A stretch of 63,965 nt of DNA, filler included, from Globobulimina sp. (taxonomy: Eukaryota): assembly GCA_003354225.1 (NCBI GenBank). It is 30 parts of 30 records of this genome, joined end to end, with 100 filler letters (N's around TTAATTAATTAA, not from the genome) between each part and the next. Parts side by side here need not be neighbours in the genome. Positions count along the whole stretch, not along the records: positions 29,911 to 31,946 come from PIVH01009554.1; 29 more parts are not named here. One strand, 5' to 3'. Positions 2,653-58,416 of this stretch are shown piece by piece. A program made the position numbers and the translations under genes. The notes below the pieces were generated by a model. The model ran no database searches. It was not told the origin of the DNA and was given only the letters and a program-made list of their open reading frames with translations. The stretch's first letter is position 1, and each line of letters starts with the position of its first letter.

Positions 2653-4174
2653 TCAATACAATTCAGCTAAGCTTTTGCTTAATATATTAATAAATATCTC
2701 AGCATGTTTAATCTCAAAAATCAATGCAGGTCTTAATCGAATACTTTTCTTTCCACAAACACCAATATGAATTCCATTTGCTCTCAATATTCCAATTAAC
2801 TTACTTCTTTCCTCTGTATCATCACAATCAAATGCAATAAATGTGCCCTTTCCACGTACATTTGATATCTTCGCATTACTCATACTTAGTTCACTTAATT
2901 TGTCCATCAAATATTCTCCAGTTTCATTCACATTTCCCAACAAGTTCTGTTTATTAATCACATCAATCACAACTTGCGTCTGTAGCAATTTAATTGGATC
3001 ACCGCACCACGTATTAAATATACGATATCCCTCTTCCACTTTCAAATACTTCTTATAATAAAAGCCGCTCGAACACATTTTCTTGGCGAAAGTAACAATA
3101 TCTGGTGAACCGCCATCATTTTCATCTAAATCCCAATGCTGATGAGCCCAGAATTTACCTGTCGGACAACAGCCAGTTTGCACCTCATCCACAATAAATA
3201 TAACTCCATTATCTTTACATAATTTCCTCAATCTTTTGAAGAAATCATTGGAACAATGATTATCTCCGCCTTCAGCTTGTATCGGCTCAACAATTAACGC
3301 TACAATATCTTTCCCCGATTTTTTCATCATACTCTCGATATTAATCAAGCATTCTCGCTCTATGTTGTCATTATACTCTTTGTGAATGTGACCAGATCTA
3401 TTCACAGGGAATGGAGTTCGCAAAATCATGTCCAAAACGGGAAGATCAACCTTGTGCATAGGGTTTGTCTGCGTGCAGGATAATGCTAGAAACGTTCGAC
3501 CATGGAAGCCGCCTTCGAATGCTATAATACCTAAACTGAGCGGTGTTGGCGTTCCGGGCAGTTCGTGTTGCAGACAACTGCTTAAATCCAGATCAGTGGG
3601 AGGCTCATCGCCACGTTTACGATACGCATGATTTATTAATGCTAATTTGAGAGCGTTCTCATTTGAACACGAACCGCACTGCAAAAACATGTACAGATTG
3701 AAACAATGAATAGTGGTTATTTGACTAAACAGGAATACACAGGACATACCATCATAAGTTGCACTGCGTCTAAACCTTGCGGTGCCACTGACATTAGGGA
3801 ATTGTAGACTGTTTGTGGGAATTCTTTAGGTGGACAGTTGCCTAAAGCGGGTCTGTTAACTATCCAAGCAATATTACTTTCGTTGTGGATAAGTTGATTG
3901 ATCATATCTTGATTGTTGTATCCCAATGGGATGGATGATATGGATTGGAATAAATCTTATTATATGGAAACAAATTAGATTTAAATCAAAAATCGGAAAA
4001 ACATGCAAGGATTTTGTTTCTGTCGCAGTGTATATGTATTTGGTACAAATCGTTCAAAACAAATTATAGTGTGCTGGTTCATTTTGTTGTGTACAAACCT
4101 AAATATACATTTCCATCCACATCTGCGACATAATTACCAATGCTTTTGTCGTAATCTACAAAAAATTGTACTTC
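2653..4174 (-). CDS. ABAT: 4-aminobutyrate aminotransferase (eukaryotic GABA-T), 5' partial; introns 3956-4098 and 3679-3749
   Basis: Spliced reading gives [36 protein letters not shown]...[33 protein letters not shown] and the PLP lysine in TFAKK. GT-AG introns restore the frame. Confidence 0.95.
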
Positions 4175-29810: not shown

Positions 29811-30286
29811 NNNNNNNNNNNNNNNNNNNNNNNNNNNNNNNNNNNNNNNNNNNNTTAATTAATTAANNNNNNNNNNNNNNNNNNNNNNNNNNNNNNNNNN
29901 NNNNNNNNNNTATTAGACTACTGCCAATTAAGTTCGGAGGTTAAACATTCGAAAACCCATCTTTGTTTACTACCGAAGGGCTTTAGCTGCAAGCGTTCCA
30001 AAAAGTGATTCTTGTCCCTTTGGAACATCTATCAACAGATATACATTCAAAAATTCATTTCAAAATTACCTCTTACATTAAATTATTATACTCATAAACA
30101 CCCATAAAAGGCATGGGGATTCCATAATATAGCATAATATATATATATATATATCCTTGCATGTTATATAATTGTTTGTTTGATATTTTATGAAAAATAT
30201 ATATGTTTTTTTTATATATAAAATTACAGAGTATACAAACATATACAACAGAAACACAAACAAAAACAAAAACACAAATAATAAAA

Positions 30287-30350
30287 TGTGATGATTGGGA
30301 TTTGAACCCAAATCTTCTTTAAATAGATGCTTTCCTTAAGCCATCATCAC
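30287..30350 (-). ncRNA. 64-nt tRNA-like cloverleaf (no variable region), copy 1
   Basis: GTGATGA/TCATCAC-A acceptor, GCTT/AAGC D stem, ATCT/AGAT central stem, TTGGG-TTCAAAT-CCCAA T arm, followed by TTTT. Confidence 0.7.
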
Positions 30351-31946
30351 AATAAATTAGACGCCGTATGGCATAATGGAAATAACCACAATAATTCATT
30401 AATTTTGTCTGTATATTGAGAACCCACTGCATTTGCAAGATTGCAGGCTTCAATTTTATCAGTGTTCAAATCAAATAACATAAATTCATCAGTATCGCCA
30501 TATGTAAATTTAGGATAACGTTCAGAGTTAATGGTATCATTTCCATTTAATGCTTCTAAACATTCTGATTTATACAATGTGTTTGCTGTTCCCTCATCAA
30601 TTATAAATTGTGGCTAATACCACTCATCAAAAAACGCATGGTTTGGTATTGTATACTTATTATTTCCATATCCCGTCCATGTATTTGTAACATTTGGTTT
30701 GAACCAAATGCAAAGTTATCACCACACATTCTCATGTTAATTAATTCTGTGCGTTGTTCATAATTTGAGACACACGCTTCGTTACAATTACATTTGATAT
30801 CCTGCCATATTTGTAAACTGTTATGGTTACTATCTGAGGTATCATTGCTTATATTTGCGATCTCTGTCAATATATTGGCGCATATTTTGTGGAACAGAAA
30901 TGTGGAGCTTTGGCCCTGTTTTGTGGAACTAGCTTTGTGAGCAAGTCAAACTAATTGTATGTAGTTTTGCGGAACATATTTTTATTAAAAATTAAATCAT
31001 ACTCATTCTTAACATAAACAGCAATATTCCAATCACCTTCAAACAAATCAGTACTATCCAAAACACGCAATAATTGGTTCTCAATCAAATAACTTTTATT
31101 ATTACTTAAATTACTAACTGTTGAACAGTTGATAATGTCATCTTCATTTATAATTATCCATAATATAAAATCTTTTGCTTGAAAATCCAAATTAATTTGT
31201 CTGTGTCCTGATGAATTGAAATGAAAAACAATAATATCATTATCTAAATCAACGTTAAATATAAGGTCCAATAAATCAATATCTTCAACTTCTTCTTTAT
31301 CATTATCAGGATAATGAGTTTCATATTGAGCGCCATTAAAAAGTTTCAATTTTGTTTGTTGTTGAATTGTATAATTAAGATCGTCAATAAACGTACGAAA
31401 TAATTGAATTTAATTGTAATTCTCTTGTGTAATACCGATATTATGTAATGAGTCCATATAAATATTTAAATCAATGCAATTTTTACTTATCATATCACGA
31501 ATAATAATTCCAGTAATATACAGCAATGAATTTGGTTCTGTTTTCATATAATTTAAAACTATAAATCTATTTAACTGTGGAATATTGAATATAATTTGGA
31601 AAAAGCCTGATAGCGATGAATAACTGAGGCCACATAAACTGTTATTTATTTTTTTACTATATATTATAAATAAAATTATTTTTCTATATGCTTTAATATA
31701 CAAACTAAACTTTATTCGACAAGTAATGCAATAAATTGTGTTAATAATTGATTTTTCACCAAATTTGTCAATTTCATCCATCGAATCCATAAAAATTAAT
31801 GCGTTCAATTGCATCAATTCACTGCAAATACCACACATCCAAAGCTTGCTTTCATTGTTACTAAAAAACTGCATATTATCGCCCAAAACACATTTCTTAT
31901 GATACTTAATACGGCAATTTGAACAATCAAATAATACATTAGATTA
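30347..31946 (-). pseudogene. Disrupted ORF (in-frame stop at 31410, frameshifts); weak resemblance to a USP/C19 protease
   Basis: Consecutive ORF pieces 31410-31886, 30951-31349, 30601-30870 and 30347-30577. FQIIFNIPQLNRF resembles the USP post-Cys-box helix. Confidence 0.55.
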
Positions 31947-32046
31947 NNNNNNNNNNNNNNNNNNNNNNNNNNNNNNNNNNNNNNNNNNNNTTAATTAATT
32001 AANNNNNNNNNNNNNNNNNNNNNNNNNNNNNNNNNNNNNNNNNNNN

Positions 32047-34081
32047 TATTTTTTCTCCATTATCGTTCTTCCAAGATGCTACTCCTCTTTCTTGAAGCTG
32101 TACATATTCTCTCTCTCTTTCGGCATTTGTTGCCATTGCGGCGATGTACTGATCAATTGTGCCGCTTACCATCTCTCCGGTTGCTTTCGACCATGCTGCT
32201 GCTCCTTCCAATGGTACAGCTTCTTCTTCTAGTCCAAGGGTAGCCAACCATTGTCCTCTGGTTGGTACTGTATGTTCCACACCTTCTGGTTCTGCTGGTT
32301 CTTCAACCATTGGTCTCTCTGCCGGTGCAATACGTCTTCTATTACGTCTCATTAGTGTTCCGATGTCAATAACACGATTACCGGCAATTGTTACTTCTGG
32401 TTCAGCCACCACTGCTAACATGTTGCCCAATGTTTGCTGATAGTAGTCTCTTGTCTCTGGTGTAAAATGAGGCCACTTACCTGGCAATACTAATGTCAAT
32501 GCAGTCCCAGATGCTATTGTCTCTTTCAATTGTTGACGCACCGCTGCTTCTTCCTGGAGATTACCGACCGTTTGTGTACCCGTTTCCATGCGTTGAGTTC
32601 GGACACGTCGATTTCTTGCACCTTCTTTGATCCGTTGAATATTTTGTAAATCACGTGGCGACAAATGATCGGAGTCCTCGTCACTTTCTTCACCATTCTG
32701 TTGAAGTCCCGACATGTCTGGCCATGCAGCTGCAAAACTCGTTGATGTGCATTTAGCACGAGGTTTTCCCAATGAATGTTGTTGGCCATACAGTGACATT
32801 GTTGCGTTCACAAAATTGATTTGCACTTGGTGAGTTTCCAACCAATCCAACCCGAAAATGAGCAATGGTAGTCGTCGGTCATCGGGTACAACATGTACAG
32901 TTTGTTCAAATTTCAGGTCACCAATAGCAAAAGACAATACAATTTTGCCCAAGATGTTTATGTTCCCCCCAAAACCAGACATTACTTTATGATGGCATTT
33001 ACGTATGTTAGACAAACTAATACCAATAAATTTCAGTACAGACACCTGTGCAATGCTAAGTCCAGAACCAGTGTCAGCCAATGCTGCCACTCTACATACC
33101 CTGATGTGTTCCTTTAGTAAACAAATGGCCATTTCCATGGGTTGTAATAATATAACTAACTTAGGGTCTACCTCCCCTTCAGGCACAACAGTCAACACTA
33201 TTGCATCCAGCGTCTCGGTATCCAATCGATTTGGCCGGACTGTACGTAGTTCAGGTACGGGAGACACAAGTTCATTGGTCACCCAAGTTTCCTCGGTGTC
33301 CAATTCACTCGACTCTTGGGGTTCAGATCGATCACAGAACGTAGTTGATTGGGATGCAGGCGGTTTAGGTACCCATACAGGTTGGTTACTGATAGTTTTA
33401 CACCTCTTATTATTATTGACACTCTCAACTGCTGTATGTACTTCACCTACTGCCCCCAATGGTTCGCCAGTCATTCTGGCAAAACATACCCCAAAATTGT
33501 CAATTGGTCGGATTGTCTCATTCACATTACTTGAAGTTACACGTTTGTGCACGACTGATGCTTCTAATCGTTCTAACTCCTTTTTACACATAATCTCTAA
33601 CGTTGGTGTTATCCAATCATATTCCTCTGGTTCCCCTCTTTCTTTATAGTATACCCAATTATCATAGGCCTCTAAGATACAATAGGAATGTGGAACATCG
33701 CAACTCGGTATCAAAAACTCTGGTAAATTATCAAAAGTTCCCATTGGGAACGATTGACCTGTTTTTATCGCAAATTGATGTAAATACTCAGAGTACTGTA
33801 ATGGACCTAATACCTTACAATAATCCAATTCCTGGTAATCCCATTGAATATTGTCGATTTCTTCTTTTGTTGTTGCGATTTCTGATTGTTGATCGGCTGT
33901 TATTGTGGCATTGATAACCAATGATTGTGGAGCTGGTTCTCTTATTGCAGTTTGATCACTACCCGCTGTATCTTTTTCAGGGCAATTTGGCCTCCAATGA
34001 CCTGTCTTGCCACATGTGTGGCAGACATACCCTTGACCAGATGTACCTCTTTGTCGTTGCGGTCTGCTGGGTCCAAATGAA
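32047..34081 (-). mobile_element. Ty3/gypsy-like LTR retrotransposon gag (CCHC knuckle)-aspartic protease fragment
   Basis: One open frame with CHTCGKTGHWRPNC, ALADTGSGLS and LIFGLDWLETHQVQINF. No RT within the contig. Confidence 0.88.
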
Positions 34082-34181
34082 NNNNNNNNNNNNNNNNNNN
34101 NNNNNNNNNNNNNNNNNNNNNNNNNTTAATTAATTAANNNNNNNNNNNNNNNNNNNNNNNNNNNNNNNNNNNNNNNNNNNN

Positions 34182-34400
34182 ACTTTCCAACCTCCAGAAT
34201 CAGTGAAGAAACGTCTCACTTTCCAACCTCCAGAATCAGTGAAGAAACGTCTCACTTTCCAACCTCTAGAATCAGTGAAGAAATGTCTCACTTTCCAACC
34301 TCCAGAATCAGTGAAGAAATGTCTCACATTAAAGAGGTAACTCCAACCCCCGAAATCAGTGAAGAAACGTCTCAAATTAAAGAGCCAGCTCCATCGCACA
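34182..34400 (+). repeat. 36-bp coding tandem repeat (HFPTSRISEETS)
   Basis: ACTTTCCAACCTCCAGAATCAGTGAAGAAACGTCTC x4, plus degenerate copies. Confidence 0.92.
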
Positions 34401-36216: not shown

Positions 36217-36817
36217 NNNNNNNNNNNNNNNNNNNNNNNNNNNNNNNNNNNNNNNNNNNNTTAATTAATTAANNNNNNNNNNNNNNNNNNNNNNNNNNNN
36301 NNNNNNNNNNNNNNNNTATTCATAAGATATGGATTGGAAAAATAAATAAACTGCACAAAGCAGGTGCAAAATCCAAAAATCATAATGCAATGCTTTTCGT
36401 GGTACAATGCCACAAAAATCCCCATTAAAAAATCAATTTTGTGTTGTGATTGTGGCTGTGGATTGTCACTCAAATTGACTAGTGCTAACTAACTTTTTTC
36501 TAAGTGGTAACACTTAAAACTTCGAAAAACACTTAGTGCATTGCATGCAAGGAGCGTGGATTAATTAAAAGTACTCATTCCACTCATCCCTTGACCTGAT
36601 TATAGAATTTATAATTCATTTGAAAAATATCTCTTACATAAAATTATTGCACTTATAAAATCCATGAAATATCTGTCTCTTTGTGTTTTGCAATTTTTTT
36701 ATTTCTTTTTTAATGGAAAATGTGCGTGTTTTAATTTATATGAGAAGATATTGTATACTCAAACATATACAACAGAAACAGAAACACAAACACAAAATGT
36801 TTGTGAAAAATAAAAAA

Positions 36818-36881
36818 TGTGATGATAGGGATTTGAACCCAAATCTTCTTTCATTAGATGCTTTTCTTAAGCGATCATCAC
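36818..36881 (-). ncRNA. 64-nt tRNA-like cloverleaf, copy 2
   Basis: GTGATGA-TC-GCTT AAGAA AAGC-ATCTA ATGAAAG AAGAT-TTGGG TTCAAAT CCCTA-TCATCAC-A, then T6. Confidence 0.7.
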
Positions 36882-37930
36882 AATAAATTGGATAATGTGG
36901 GCCAACATAATCTCTCTTTTAAATATGTTTTTGCGCTGTCTTTCTTCTCTTTATCTGCCTCAATTAAGTCATATTCGTCGCTGTCTGTGTCTGTGTTGGC
37001 AACACTGAGTTTCATGTAATTCCACATGTTTTTAATCACAAATATTTTAGCTTTACTCAGATTAATTCTGCGCTGTCTATCTTCATTTTCCAGTTTTTGT
37101 CATCATAAAAATTAACAAATCGGTTGAACAAACCGCTGATTAATGGCACATCAGAGACGTTAGAATCAGATACGGGGCAAAACGATGGATAATAAATATT
37201 TGTGGCAATCTGTTTTAATTTTGTCGCGGTTTTGTAAACAATAAAATTTAATGGAGGACGCGATGAAATTCGCGACCGATTGCTCTGTAATTAATAAGGA
37301 GTCATTATCGTCGTTGCTATTTATGGTAATAATTTGATGCGAGTCTGTCTCATAAACATCAATTAAGCATAAATCATAAGGAGTCATCGTCGTCGATTTG
37401 CGACAGGATATGATATAAAGTGCTCATTGGACCGGCTTCAAAGCCCATTTGCGTCCAAATAAATTTATTGCTTTGAGACTCGATGTGATCCAAATATAAT
37501 CCAAATATTTTCTCTTTTTTATAAAAAAGGTGCAATTTATCCACATAATAATCGCGTATACGAATATAATCGCGAACATAAATTTGAATTGGTTCGGAAA
37601 GTAAATCTGTAACAACAAAATTGTATTTTCCTGTATATGTACGTACGATAAGTGCAAGGATACAATGTATACAATGATTTAATACTGCAGCGGTACAGTC
37701 CCTGTTGATACATTGAGGGTTACTTCCAAAACCCATTGGGCGTCGTGGATGTGATGGGAATTGATGCACTCAACGGATACGTTTCCGCCATTTGGCTGAT
37801 TAATATTTCAGAGTTTGCATCGCGTATTTTCTTAATTGCCTCTTGTTTCGTGCATTTTCTTTTTGATAAACAGTATCCACCTTTTATCCATTCCAAATCC
37901 ATTACAACAGCTTCTAACTGCTATTCTGTA
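36878..37930 (-). pseudogene. Frameshifted ORF ending LCWPTLSNLL*; weak USP Cys-box resemblance
   Basis: Pieces 37720-37902, 37374-37769, 37166-37387 and a final frame joined by frameshifts; contains PMGFGSNPQCINRDC..VLNHC. Confidence 0.5.
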
Positions 37931-38692
37931 TAATTAAAAAACAACAAAAAATGAAAAAAGTAAATCTGAAGGGGCAAAAATAGATTGCTTTAAATCGGTT
38001 TCATATGAATTTAATACTGAATTGGGTTAAATTCATTAATGGAAAACCGATTCAAAGTTGCCAGACTAAAGCGTAAGTGCCATGTAATTAACTTTGAAAG
38101 TATTAGCACTCAGAAAAAACGTAGTTAGCACTAGTCTAATCGCTTTATTTCCAGTGTCAATTTTGGTGTGTTTGCAGTGGTGGATTGACACTCAATTCCT
38201 TTTCTCCTGTCTTCAAAATCTGTCTTAATTGATTGAGATCGCGCCAATCTAAGTTTCCATTAAATGCCTGGTTTAGTTGAAATCAATCATACATCCATTT
38301 AATTGGATTATTCATCCAATCTCTGTAATATAATATATACAGATTATGAATNNNNNNNNNNNNNNNNNNNNNNNNNNNNNNNNNNNNNNNNNNNNTTAAT
38401 TAATTAANNNNNNNNNNNNNNNNNNNNNNNNNNNNNNNNNNNNNNNNNNNNTGGAATGGGTGGAATGGGAATTGGTATTACTGGCTGTGTTGGAATTGTT
38501 GGCGGTACCCATTGCAGTAACACTTTATTTGCGGATAATGGATAGATTAAAAATATAGAGAATAATAATTGCTTTATCATGGTGTGTGTGTGTGGTTAGG
38601 AGATTGTTAAGTATTGCTGAAAGGATGGTGACAAGGTTTTTTTTTTAGTAAAATACTTCCACTTTACCTTACATTCCAGAAAATGCCTGATT

Positions 38693-39244
38693 ATGGATGA
38701 ATATTCCTGTGCTGGCAGTAGCGAGAAGAACGTAACTTGCTCAGCTTGCGTGCCTCAAAGTGGAATTATAAGATGTTGTTGGTTGTCAGGGAGCCATTAT
38801 TGCATATTAAGAGGCACTGGTCCTGACCAGTACGGTACAGAAGAATGTCTTGACAGTTATTCAGACTGCCCCGGCTATTCTATGATTAATCAGCGAGATG
38901 TCGTACCCATTATAGTGATAGTATCGTTTATGACTATTATCATATGCATAGCACTTAGCTGTACCATATATGGCAAATGTCAAAAGAATAAGAAACCTAA
39001 TAATTCATCTCCCAATTCAGAGGCAACACATATACAACAAACAGAAACAGAAACACAAGCAATGCAACCCGATTATGCTCAGCCATATATACCAAATGCT
39101 GCGATTACAACTGGTCATGGAGCGGTACAACAACCTCAAGTCATTTATGTACAACAACCTGTACAGAAACAACGAGTTTACGCTAATATGCAAATAGCAG
39201 CGCCTCCTCTGCAGGGTCAACAGCGGCCTGTTACACATTGTTGA
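38693..39244 (+). CDS. Small Cys-rich single-pass membrane protein with a P/Q-rich tail
   Basis: Cys-rich ectodomain, TM VVPIIVIVSFMTIIICIAL, QQPQVIYVQQP tail. Confidence 0.65.
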   Translation: MDEYSCAGSSEKNVTCSACVPQSGIIRCCWLSGSHYCILRGTGPDQYGTEECLDSYSDCPGYSMINQRDVVPIIVIVSFMTIIICIALSCTIYGKCQKNKKPNNSSPNSEATHIQQTETETQAMQPDYAQPYIPNAAITTGHGAVQQPQVIYVQQPVQKQRVYANMQIAAPPLQGQQRPVTHC

Positions 39245-39909
39245 TTGTAAATATTATTTTGTTGTTTTGCTAATATCATTGTGTGGGTTTACCCAGTTTT
39301 GTTTTGTATTGATAATTGTAGAAATTCTGACAACTGTTGAATGTAGTTTTTGTCAAAGATAATCCAAATTCGATCAGTTTCATATTTTTTGCAATATCTC
39401 ATATTTAGAGAAAATATGTGATTTGAGAAACATTCAAATTATAGCCTCGCACATTCGCGACTGATCAACTGCAAACGTAAATTTGTACATGTTTGTCGTT
39501 TAAAATCTGAGATCATTGATCCCAAAACCTTTTCAAATTAAGTGATCTAGTCATCTTACTTCCTTTAGTGCCACTGGATTTGGATCAGTTAAATCTTATA
39601 GTAATGTCACTGTAAATTATAGCACCGATGAAACCAGCAGGTAACAAATAAATATGTGCGCGCCAGCCATCATCGATATCGATAGTGATCTCGAATTGAG
39701 AAAAATGGAAAGAAATCTACATCAAAATTGTGTATATGAATTTAAACAGTGGTTGCAAATAAACAAAAAAGAATAATTAGAACAATCATTTAATACCATT
39801 GGAAAAATAAACATTAAATAAAAATAACACAAAAAAATATAACACAAAAAAAGAAATATAACAAAAAAAAAACAAATTACAATAAATAAAATTACAGAAT
39901 TAATGTATT

Positions 39910-40486
39910 TTAAGATTGTTTATGTTTGATAATAAACGGATGTTTATTAATATCGCGCGACGAATATCTTTTATTCGGATCGATTTCCATTAAACATTTC
40001 ACCAAATGTTTGGCATCGTGTTCGATAAATTTCCATCTTCGAGAATTAAAATTGTACATTCCCTTCGAAATCAATTTGTAAATTTGATTCAGCGAACTCG
40101 CATTAAATGGTTGGTATCCAACGAGCATAATATATAAAATAACGCCAACTGACCATATATCGCACTTGTAAGTGTACTGATTTTTCATTATAATCTCTGG
40201 TGCCACGTAATGCGGCGTACCGCAGCAGGTATTACACAAAATTATTTCTGTGTTATCAAAGTATACAAACTGCAAACTAATAATTATCCAAACGGACAAT
40301 CACGAATTTTATTTCCGTGCAATTTGCAGACAATAATTATGAGTTTGGCAGATCGGAAACTCAGAAACAGAGTGTTATTAAAGTCGAATTTGTAGACATA
40401 CCCGGAAATAACTTCGTTTTTGTGGCATGTGTAGCTTTTTCGTAATGCGCGAGGCCAAAATCAGTGATTTTGAGCACACCGTCCGT
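39910..40486 (-). CDS. CAMK-group Ser/Thr kinase, C-terminal half with one intron
   Basis: LKITDFGLA | TCCGTPHYVAPE, DIWSVGVILYIMLVGYQPF, DPNKR, HPFI. Confidence 0.93.
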
Positions 40487-41014
40487 NNNNNNNNNNNNNN
40501 NNNNNNNNNNNNNNNNNNNNNNNNNNNNNNTTAATTAATTAANNNNNNNNNNNNNNNNNNNNNNNNNNNNNNNNNNNNNNNNNNNNAATGTTTTTATTTT
40601 GAATAATCTGTAAAAAACTGTAAATTCAAAGAGTTTACAGTAAAAACAGTAATTTCAAACTGAAAAGCAAAAAGTTAAATGTTACCTTTAACATCTTATT
40701 ATTAACCTATTTTCCTTCCTATTGCTTGCAGAACATACAACATTTTTTTATAATAAAGTATTTGTAAAAAACTATAAATATACCGAGTGTATAAAAGATA
40801 ATCTGCTGTCATGAACTTGAATGTGTCATCGTTAACTTGCACAAACAAAAAACAATAATATTTTATTCATTTCATACCCATTCAGAAGAGACAACAAAAC
40901 GGAAAATTACAACAAAAACAAAATTAAAAAGAGAATAACAATGGTCAACACAAGCTATGATTTTAAATAAATAAGAGAACAGAACACAAAACACAATTAT
41001 TAACTGTCAAAATA

Positions 41015-42721: not shown

Positions 42722-43080
42722 GTGAGCAGACCACCGCCTACGATGTGCAGACCACTGCGTATGACACACAAACCCTTAAATATGATAAGCAGACGGACGA
42801 CTTGGATGCGCAAACCACGGCATACGATAAGCAGACCACCGACTACGATGTGCAGACCACTGCCTACGATGCGCAGACCATTAGGTACGATGCGCAGACC
42901 CTTGCCTATGATGAGCAGACCATTAAATTTGATGCGCAGACCCTTGCGTACGATGCACAAACCGCCCAACTCGACGCACAGACCGTGAAATATGATAAGC
43001 AGATGGATGAGTTGGATGCGCAGACCATTGCTTACGATGCACAGACCCTGGCCTATGATGAGCAGACCATTGCCTTTGGG
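42722..43080 (+). repeat. 21-bp coding tandem repeat (~17 units)
   Basis: TACGATGCGCAGACCACTGCC-type units. Confidence 0.9.
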
Positions 43081-58131: not shown

Positions 58132-58416
58132 ACATTCAACTTTGCAATATTTGTATTCAATAAAACTATTCGTTTTCATGCAAGTAACTAATTTCAATTC
58201 AAGTTTCAAACTAAAAAGCAATGATTGAATGCATGCAAATAATATTATAATGGCGGCCGAAGGCCGCCGCCTTCGGCGGCCGCCGAAGGCGGCCCCGCCA
58301 TTATAATAATTATTTGCATGCGATCAATCATTGCTTTTTAGTTTGAAACTTGAATTGAAATTAGTTGCATGAAAACGAATAGTTTTATTGAATACAAATA
58401 TGGCAAAGTTGAATGT
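58132..58416. repeat. ~285-bp imperfect palindrome with a GC-rich triple-hairpin centre (58252-58299)
   Basis: ACATTCAACTTTGC...ATTATAATGGCGG and its reverse complement CCGCCATTATAAT...GCAAAGTTGAATGT. Confidence 0.95.

Follow-up and report, generated by a model that had tools for sequence, protein, structure and literature searches.

Two tRNA-shaped cloverleaves in the DNA analyzed here, a window of 63,965 nucleotides joined from parts of the Globobulimina sp. assembly GCA_003354225.1, are members of a very abundant, dispersed tRNA-like repeat family. The family is likely to be a tRNA-derived, polymerase III (Pol III)-type short interspersed repeat in the AT-rich genome of a poorly sampled protist. 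A preliminary description of the window had placed both cloverleaves at the end of an open reading frame (ORF) borne by a transposon, with a tRNA mimic that serves in mRNA 3'-end processing or as a Pol III small RNA or insulator. The mistaken idea of a transposon ORF closed by such a mimic is replaced here by a documented repeat family in a barely described lineage.

The 64-nt folds of the preliminary description were confirmed at both of its positions (Table 1), by Rfam hits, by minimum-free-energy (MFE) structures, and by the T-runs behind them. Likeness to tRNA was scored with Infernal against the Rfam tRNA model (RF00005), and both copies exceed its gathering score of 29 bits. The score of copy 2 is from an E-value scan of 8 kb, and scans of the whole window list copy 1 only. 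The tRNA finders gave a split answer, with ARAGORN reporting no tRNAs in the window and the Rfam model detecting both copies. The MFE structure of each copy is a cloverleaf, and of the 200 shuffles behind each z-score, 3 folded as well as copy 1 and 2 as well as copy 2. In copy 1, the 7-bp acceptor stem is paired throughout, the D stem has 4 bp and a 5-nt loop, the central arm has a 5-bp stem (its last pair being A.A) with a 7-nt loop, and a 5-bp T stem carries a canonical T loop. The discriminator is A and is followed directly by four T's in copy 1 and by six in copy 2. The perfect acceptor stem, discriminator A, short D arm, and canonical T loop attributed to the folds were therefore all found.

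Over the 64 nt, copy 2 is 92.2% identical to copy 1 (BLAST). Four of the five differing positions are unpaired, in agreement with the claim that most differences fall outside the stems, and the fifth disrupts a T-stem pair in copy 2, leaving one mismatch there. The claimed lack of a variable region depends on the register. Infernal draws an anticodon stem of 3 to 4 bp with a variable region of 4 nt, while the family alignment favors the register with a 5-bp stem and a 7-nt loop, the only one in which the copies on contigs L008 and L012 pair.

Table 1. Features of the two cloverleaf loci, in coordinates of the window
Feature	Position	Strand	Basis and remarks
Conserved 5' leader, copy 1	30351..30376	-	small degenerate GC hairpin followed by the AATTTATTG motif; three-way alignment with copy 2 and L006
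tRNA-like cloverleaf, copy 1	30287..30350	-	64 nt; Rfam tRNA, 52.2 bits; MFE cloverleaf, z = -2.55; family alignment
Oligo-T run and T/G-rich tail, copy 1	30172..30286	-	direct repeats; BLAST, 78.5%
Sulfatase-family gene, frameshifted C-terminal fragment	30389..30876	-	context outside the element; phmmer, Pfam, and tblastn; last frame enters copy 1
Conserved 5' leader, copy 2 (shorter remnant)	36882..36897	-	alignments
tRNA-like cloverleaf, copy 2	36818..36881	-	64 nt; Rfam tRNA, 41.7 bits; MFE cloverleaf, z = -2.89
Oligo-T run and T/G-rich tail, copy 2	36695..36817	-	direct repeats; BLAST; alignment

Relatives of the element were found well beyond the window. An exact 27-nt pattern spanning the T arm and the 3' strand of the acceptor stem matched four metagenome contigs and one contig of a metagenome-assembled genome (MAG) labelled Gammaproteobacteria, and had no match among viral contigs. 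BLAST with a 191-nt repeat, together with a covariance model built here (R1), raised the number of copies in this MAG to eight, all of them on short AT-rich contigs (0.6 to 1.6 kb; 26 to 41% G+C). These contigs (L005 to L013) are probably eukaryotic host DNA that was misbinned. The family sample thus comprises 14 copies (2 in the window, 4 from metagenomes, and 8 from the MAG), 5 of which were retrieved by the exact T-arm pattern. The metagenome copies (L001 to L004) score 45.6 to 50.5 bits against Rfam tRNA, and three of the seven MAG contigs scanned were listed as tRNA, at 35.3 to 46.6 bits. Among the 15 loci submitted to ARAGORN, the longer variants L004 and L013 were accepted as tRNAs, and the 64-nt forms were not. 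The idea of a recurring, conserved tRNA-like fold has thus held up, with the family present on four metagenome and eight MAG contigs in unrelated contexts. A second tRNA-like repeat family was also observed among these contigs (L016, 419 to 486; L017, 693 to 768, minus strand; L018, 566 to 628). It shares the D arm but differs in the acceptor stem, its central loop is larger, and A/C-rich sequence follows it.

The abundance of the family is evident from the word depth of contigs of four public runs compared with positions 29911 to 31946. Run X1 holds 74% of the words of this region, in 426 pieces. Its summed contig word depth, which is not equivalent to copy number, is 20,029 over 30251 to 30318, the T-arm half of the element, and 5.32 over 31339 to 31882. 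At single positions between 30293 and 30302 it reaches about 36,500 to 40,600. For the bins next to the T-arm bin, into which the leader, the element's 5' half, and most of the tail fall, the values are 2,431 to 2,748. This depth is thousands of times that of neighboring unique sequence, and we read it only as a sign that the cloverleaf sequence is repeated very many times. Loose contig ends place the divergence of other copies immediately outside 30283 to 30353. In run X2, from a second organism (records 10 to 14), pieces cover the element with 4 to 10 differences.

The fold is far better conserved than its surroundings. In a structure alignment of 13 copies, 97.8% of the 273 cells of the proposed fold are paired, and RNAalifold recovers the cloverleaf from the alignment unaided. 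Mean pairwise identity is 95.7% in stems, 77.4% in loops, 30% in the 5' flank, and 47% in the 3' flank (flanks compared without gaps), so that the fold survives the preliminary description's own refutation, namely, stems no more conserved than flanks. Five of the 42 stem columns vary, compared with 13 of the 22 loop columns (Fisher P = 2e-4), and the contrast holds both for columns outside the search pattern (P = 9e-4) and for the nine copies that the pattern did not retrieve (P = 6e-4). Covariation was found at one place, D-stem pair 13:19, which is C-G in eight copies and U-A in five. Of the 21 pairs, 18 never vary among the 13 copies.

A functional decoding tRNA was rejected for this element. 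ARAGORN does not accept the 64-nt forms, the central-loop triplet varies among copies with identical acceptor stems, most copies have no GG in the D loop, and in 5 of 13 the T loop does not follow the pattern that is nearly universal among tRNAs. Comparison with the second family (L016 to L018) and with L004 and L013, the longer variants, suggests, as the most likely origin of the 64-nt form, a normal tRNA whose anticodon arm shrank and whose variable region was then drawn into the stem.

The same alignment bears on the possibility that the repeat is a multicopy family of genes, each under selection instead of decaying as a retrocopy, whose product is a functional, structurally constrained tRNA-like RNA. 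This small RNA would be made by Pol III, trimmed by RNases P and Z, and perhaps CCA tailed, and would resemble a free-standing mascRNA. Nearly invariant stems beside varying loops, the compensatory pair, the T-run terminators directly behind the fold, and the retention of the fold in runs of two organisms and in a metagenome would all fit such a family. A central loop with no conserved triplet, a D loop mostly without GG, and a T loop that is altered in 5 of 13 copies speak against it, and a word depth exceeding the unique level by a factor of thousands is what mobile repeats more typically show. We regard such a gene family as unlikely.

The two window loci are alike only at about 30172 to 30361 and 36695 to 36892 (78.5% identity over 200 nt by BLAST). 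In the roughly 200 nt that they share, one to two dozen bases of leader precede the 64-nt cloverleaf, and about 115 nt of T/G-rich tail follow it. The copy 1 leader contains the hairpin (30374 to 30361) found in a scan for terminator-like structures and is similar to the final part of the tandem hairpin unit in L007 and L008. The T/G-rich tail is a subfamily-specific 3' part common to copy 1, copy 2, and L006, and positions 728 to 939 of L005/L006 are 83% identical to 30374 to 30184. Downstream of copy 1, beyond a (TA)n run, the segment 29911 to 30114 has a word depth of about 3,100 to 3,900 in run X1 and thus belongs either to a different abundant repeat or to an extension of the cloverleaf repeat.

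These two direct repeats of about 200 nt could in principle be the long terminal repeats (LTRs) of one old LTR retrotransposon with a zinc-knuckle/protease ORF between them. They lie in the same orientation, 6,531 nt apart, and the interior contains an ORF of higher G+C content that encodes a CCHC zinc knuckle and weakly matches an aspartyl protease. This arrangement is nevertheless extremely improbable as an LTR element. The repeat occurs alone on other contigs, the interior also contains the sulfatase fragment and unrelated ORFs on both strands, and the repeats are only 78.5% identical. Nor does a primer-binding site appear: a search of the window for a complement of the cloverleaf 3' end plus CCA, which might have primed reverse transcription of the zinc-knuckle/protease element, found none apart from the cloverleaf itself.

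The zinc-knuckle frame itself (32047 to 34080, minus strand) encodes 678 amino acids and has 36 to 42% G+C, against about 30% elsewhere. Candidate identities are the remnant of a retroelement gag-protease and a DDI-like gene. Several other features of the window were recorded. At 58202 to 58350 (minus strand) there is a long palindrome in which AT-rich arms enclose nested GC-rich hairpins, in a hairpin style that recalls the L007 and L008 units; its Rfam match, to mir-580, is below threshold (61.6 bits, against a gathering score of 83). Long open frames contain in-frame tandem repeats of 36 nt at 34182 to 34361 (at least four overlapping 72-nt copies) and of 21 nt at 42763 to 43075 (at least nine overlapping copies). 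A GABA-aminotransferase-like protein of the window has at most 49% identity to named relatives among the 120 matches listed, with metagenome relatives at 62 to 71%. The window also holds 58 runs of exactly 44 N, paired 12 nt apart and recurring every ~2,136 nt (for example, 29811 to 29854 with 29867 to 29910 and 31947 to 31990 with 32003 to 32046). These look like deliberate masking rather than assembly gaps, and because they translate as X they artificially lengthen ORFs, such as that at 31999 to 34125.

Reading frames do run into both window cloverleaves. Stop-to-stop frames of 88 amino acids (30347 to 30613) and 73 amino acids (36878 to 37099) close at a TGA formed by nucleotides 2 to 4 of the element, that is, within the acceptor stem, and both end in ...SNLL*, as the preliminary description had stated. 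The bodies of the two ORFs are unrelated. They show no DNA alignment, and BLASTP of one against the other gave an E value of 0.29 (0.91 for the last 10 residues). A search with phmmer of a library of 1.84 billion representatives found nine relatives of the 88-amino-acid frame (best E value, 2.6e-08), and no relatives of the 73-amino-acid frame were found. Apart from a weak, repetitive match to P0129 (E value, 2.7e-4), all matches of the 88-amino-acid frame end by about residue 75. One of the relatives, P0122, is a 659-amino-acid protein with a Pfam Sulfatase domain at residues 27 to 391. By tblastn, its residues 383 to 440 match 30876 to 30718 and its residues 476 to 575 match 30694 to 30389 (E value, 1.3e-25), in two different frames. 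This identifies the copy 1 ORF as a C-terminal piece of a sulfatase-family gene that has been frameshifted. P0122 continues for 84 residues past the point where the homology stops, and tblastn found no sulfatase homology on the far side of the repeat at an E value of 0.01 or less. In these alignments, the sulfatase homology ends at the start of the repeat.

The common ending of the two ORFs is accounted for by the element. The acceptor stem begins G-TGA-TGA, so any frame that enters it in that register has to stop, and in both window copies two of the three frames are closed, at nucleotides 2 to 4 and 13 to 15. The shared ...SNLL* arises because the conserved leader of the repeat is translated, over the last ~10 codons (about 13 residues in the 88-amino-acid ORF). 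Upstream sequence is available for 11 other copies, and in all of them the frame that ends at this TGA is open for only 0 to 24 codons; contact with a long ORF is thus peculiar to the window copies among the copies examined. It appears to be incidental, a consequence of where these two copies landed. Since only 2.4% of the stops in the window are preceded by at least 73 open codons, the frame of copy 2 is mildly unexpected by chance, and it is mildly unusual but unremarkable for a gene-dense region. ORF lengths under other sets of stop codons were also considered and gave no reason to abandon the standard genetic code.

A DNA transposon whose ORF ends in the acceptor stem, with the tRNA mimic forming the 3' end of its mRNA, would account for the long frames (73 to 88 codons) closed by the acceptor-stem TGA in both window copies, open stretches of a length that is rare before window stops. 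It is very improbable in view of the other copies, none of the 11 of which has such a frame, and of the window itself, where similarity between the two loci is limited to about 200 nt, one ORF is a frameshifted sulfatase-family fragment, and the other is without relatives. Pfam found no transposase domain in either window frame. The ORFs cannot, then, be called transposon borne, and because they are unrelated and their shared end is translated leader, there is no basis here for a role of the cloverleaf in mRNA 3'-end processing for an element-borne ORF.

A different association was found upstream of some cloverleaves. Six of the 14 copies lie directly behind tandem arrays of GC-hairpin units of about 40 to 52 nt, with the arrays ending 10 to 25 nt before the cloverleaf (L007 to L010, L012, and L002). 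The array of L007 (128 to 587) has 12 units of about 40 nt and that of L008 (744 to 1092) has units of 42 to 52 nt, each unit with a GC-rich hairpin; L009, L010, and L012 share this type of array, and L002 has a different tandem unit of ~48 nt at about 110 to 300. L007 and L008 have in common a further ~130 nt before the array. Searched against Rfam for hammerhead or other known RNAs, the upstream tandem units gave nothing but tRNA and subthreshold noise. Five of the six array-bearing copies (L007 to L010 and L012) carry a T-loop variant that departs from what we take to be the B-box consensus and that presumably weakens the B box. Together with the array linkage, these off-consensus T loops hint at another mode of expression or spread. 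As the end of the array unit resembles the leaders of the window copies, and the copy 1 leader has a degenerate hairpin, the window copies may be remnants of a longer composite.

If so, the cloverleaf would be the 3' module of an element comprising a 5' region, a GC-hairpin array, the tRNA-like part, and the T/G-rich tail. A longer RNA would be transcribed, RNase P cleavage at the cloverleaf would form the 3' end of the upstream RNA, and the window copies would be 5' truncated. The placement of the six arrays just before the cloverleaf, the ~130 nt shared by L007 and L008, the window leaders that resemble one degenerate hairpin unit, and the T-loop variants, which should weaken the B box if our assumed consensus is right, are consistent with a composite of this kind. 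Against these stand the 8 of 14 copies with no array, the immediate divergence of L001, L004, L011, and L013 outside the cloverleaf, the T-runs that follow the cloverleaf in array-bearing copies as well, and the lack of an A-rich or triple-helix module upstream. On balance, a composite seems quite unlikely. It is the sole surviving form of the earlier idea of 3'-end processing, minus the ORF. A related reading, in which the cloverleaf would be more than a decaying SINE head, namely, a selected, minimal tRNA-shaped handle, devoid of nucleotide 26 and the variable region, that the host's tRNA-processing enzymes recognize and that in its full form closes a GC-hairpin array, with RNase P cleavage forming the 3' end of the array RNA, is likewise a long shot. 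If true, it would be a protist-wide, repeat-borne analogue of the MALAT1-mascRNA arrangement.

The reading that we favor remains that of a tRNA-derived repeat, which is probably SINE-like. Each copy would be a shrunken tRNA gene of 64 nt in which the equivalents of nucleotide 26 and of the variable region have been absorbed or have disappeared. Infernal aligns the D arm and the T arm to the tRNA model, and an internal Pol III promoter would have its A box in the D arm and its B box in the T arm, an assignment made with what we take to be the A- and B-box consensus. An oligo-T run, the presumed terminator, follows the discriminator closely in most copies: at least four T's start no more than 2 nt from it in 10 of the 14 copies and no more than 12 nt from it in 12. 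The T-run right after the fold, correctly noted in the preliminary description, fits a self-contained Pol III unit. Given a tRNA gene with A and B boxes and an oligo-T run, the product of each copy would most likely be a Pol III transcript of ~64 to 70 nt. Spread would have occurred by SINE-like retroposition into unrelated contexts; in a test for target-site duplications, a word shared between the flanks beat shuffled sequence in 1 of 10 testable copies (L004; 9 nt, reached in 11 of 200 shuffles). Several source genes or lineages would have stayed under selection for the fold, which fits the combination of invariant stems, one compensatory change in the D stem, and freely drifting loops.

The family is noteworthy for its unusually small cloverleaf, whose stems have remained intact across copies while the loops drifted, and for the subfamily that is tied to tandem GC-hairpin arrays. 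It also has consequences for annotation. Because the elements pass the Rfam tRNA threshold, tRNA counts in such genomes will be inflated, and because the G-TGA-TGA start closes reading frames, false gene ends arise. Short AT-rich contigs that carry the repeat within a bacterium-labelled MAG can, in turn, flag host contamination of bins. The portions of the open literature that were searched, PMC3079666 among them, yielded no description of this cloverleaf family; repeat databases were outside the scope of that search.

With tRNA-derived SINEs, the family shares a tRNA-related head with A-box and B-box regions, high abundance in unrelated contexts, subfamilies with different 3' parts, and the presence of a second tRNA-like family in the same DNA. 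SINEs seldom have a T-run immediately after the head, and their bodies need to be transcribed through. Here, in contrast, the head is a near-perfect cloverleaf with invariant stems, the T-run that follows it directly is expected to stop Pol III, and the ~115-nt tail of the subfamily of copies 1, 2, and L006 lies past that T-run. In one subfamily, moreover, 12 to 26 nt upstream of the cloverleaf are conserved, whereas a pure Pol III retrocopy predicts no such conservation. Some copies stand behind tandem hairpin arrays, and the tails are T/G rich and subfamily specific.

tRNA pseudogenes and tRNA-like TFIIIC-binding sites likewise have a tRNA covariance score, do not decode, and retain A and B boxes. 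Ordinary tRNA pseudogenes decay regardless of pairing, in contrast to the concentration of variable columns in the loops of this family and its compensatory pair. In the tRNA-miRNA units of gammaherpesviruses and the tRNA-snoRNA dicistrons of plants, the tRNA precedes the hairpins and directs Pol III through them. The presumed resemblance is that of a tRNA-like module beside short hairpins, which suggests release by tRNA enzymes, but here the hairpin arrays are upstream of the cloverleaf and the terminator is behind it.

mascRNA and menRNA are small tRNA-like RNAs that RNases P and Z release from MALAT1 and NEAT1. What they presumably have in common with the present elements is a cloverleaf of ~60 nt that has a reduced central arm, does not decode, and stands at the end of an upstream sequence. 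They differ in being found at one or two loci, compared with thousands of word-depth equivalents here, and the elements described here have no A-rich tract or triple helix upstream and bring an oligo-T run of their own with each copy. A mascRNA-type 3' module, defined by a conserved upstream transcript that has an A-rich, triple-helical end, was rejected, the upstream sequences and ORFs being unrelated among copies. The closest known kind is thus the tRNA-derived SINE, and the closest in shape are mascRNA and menRNA.
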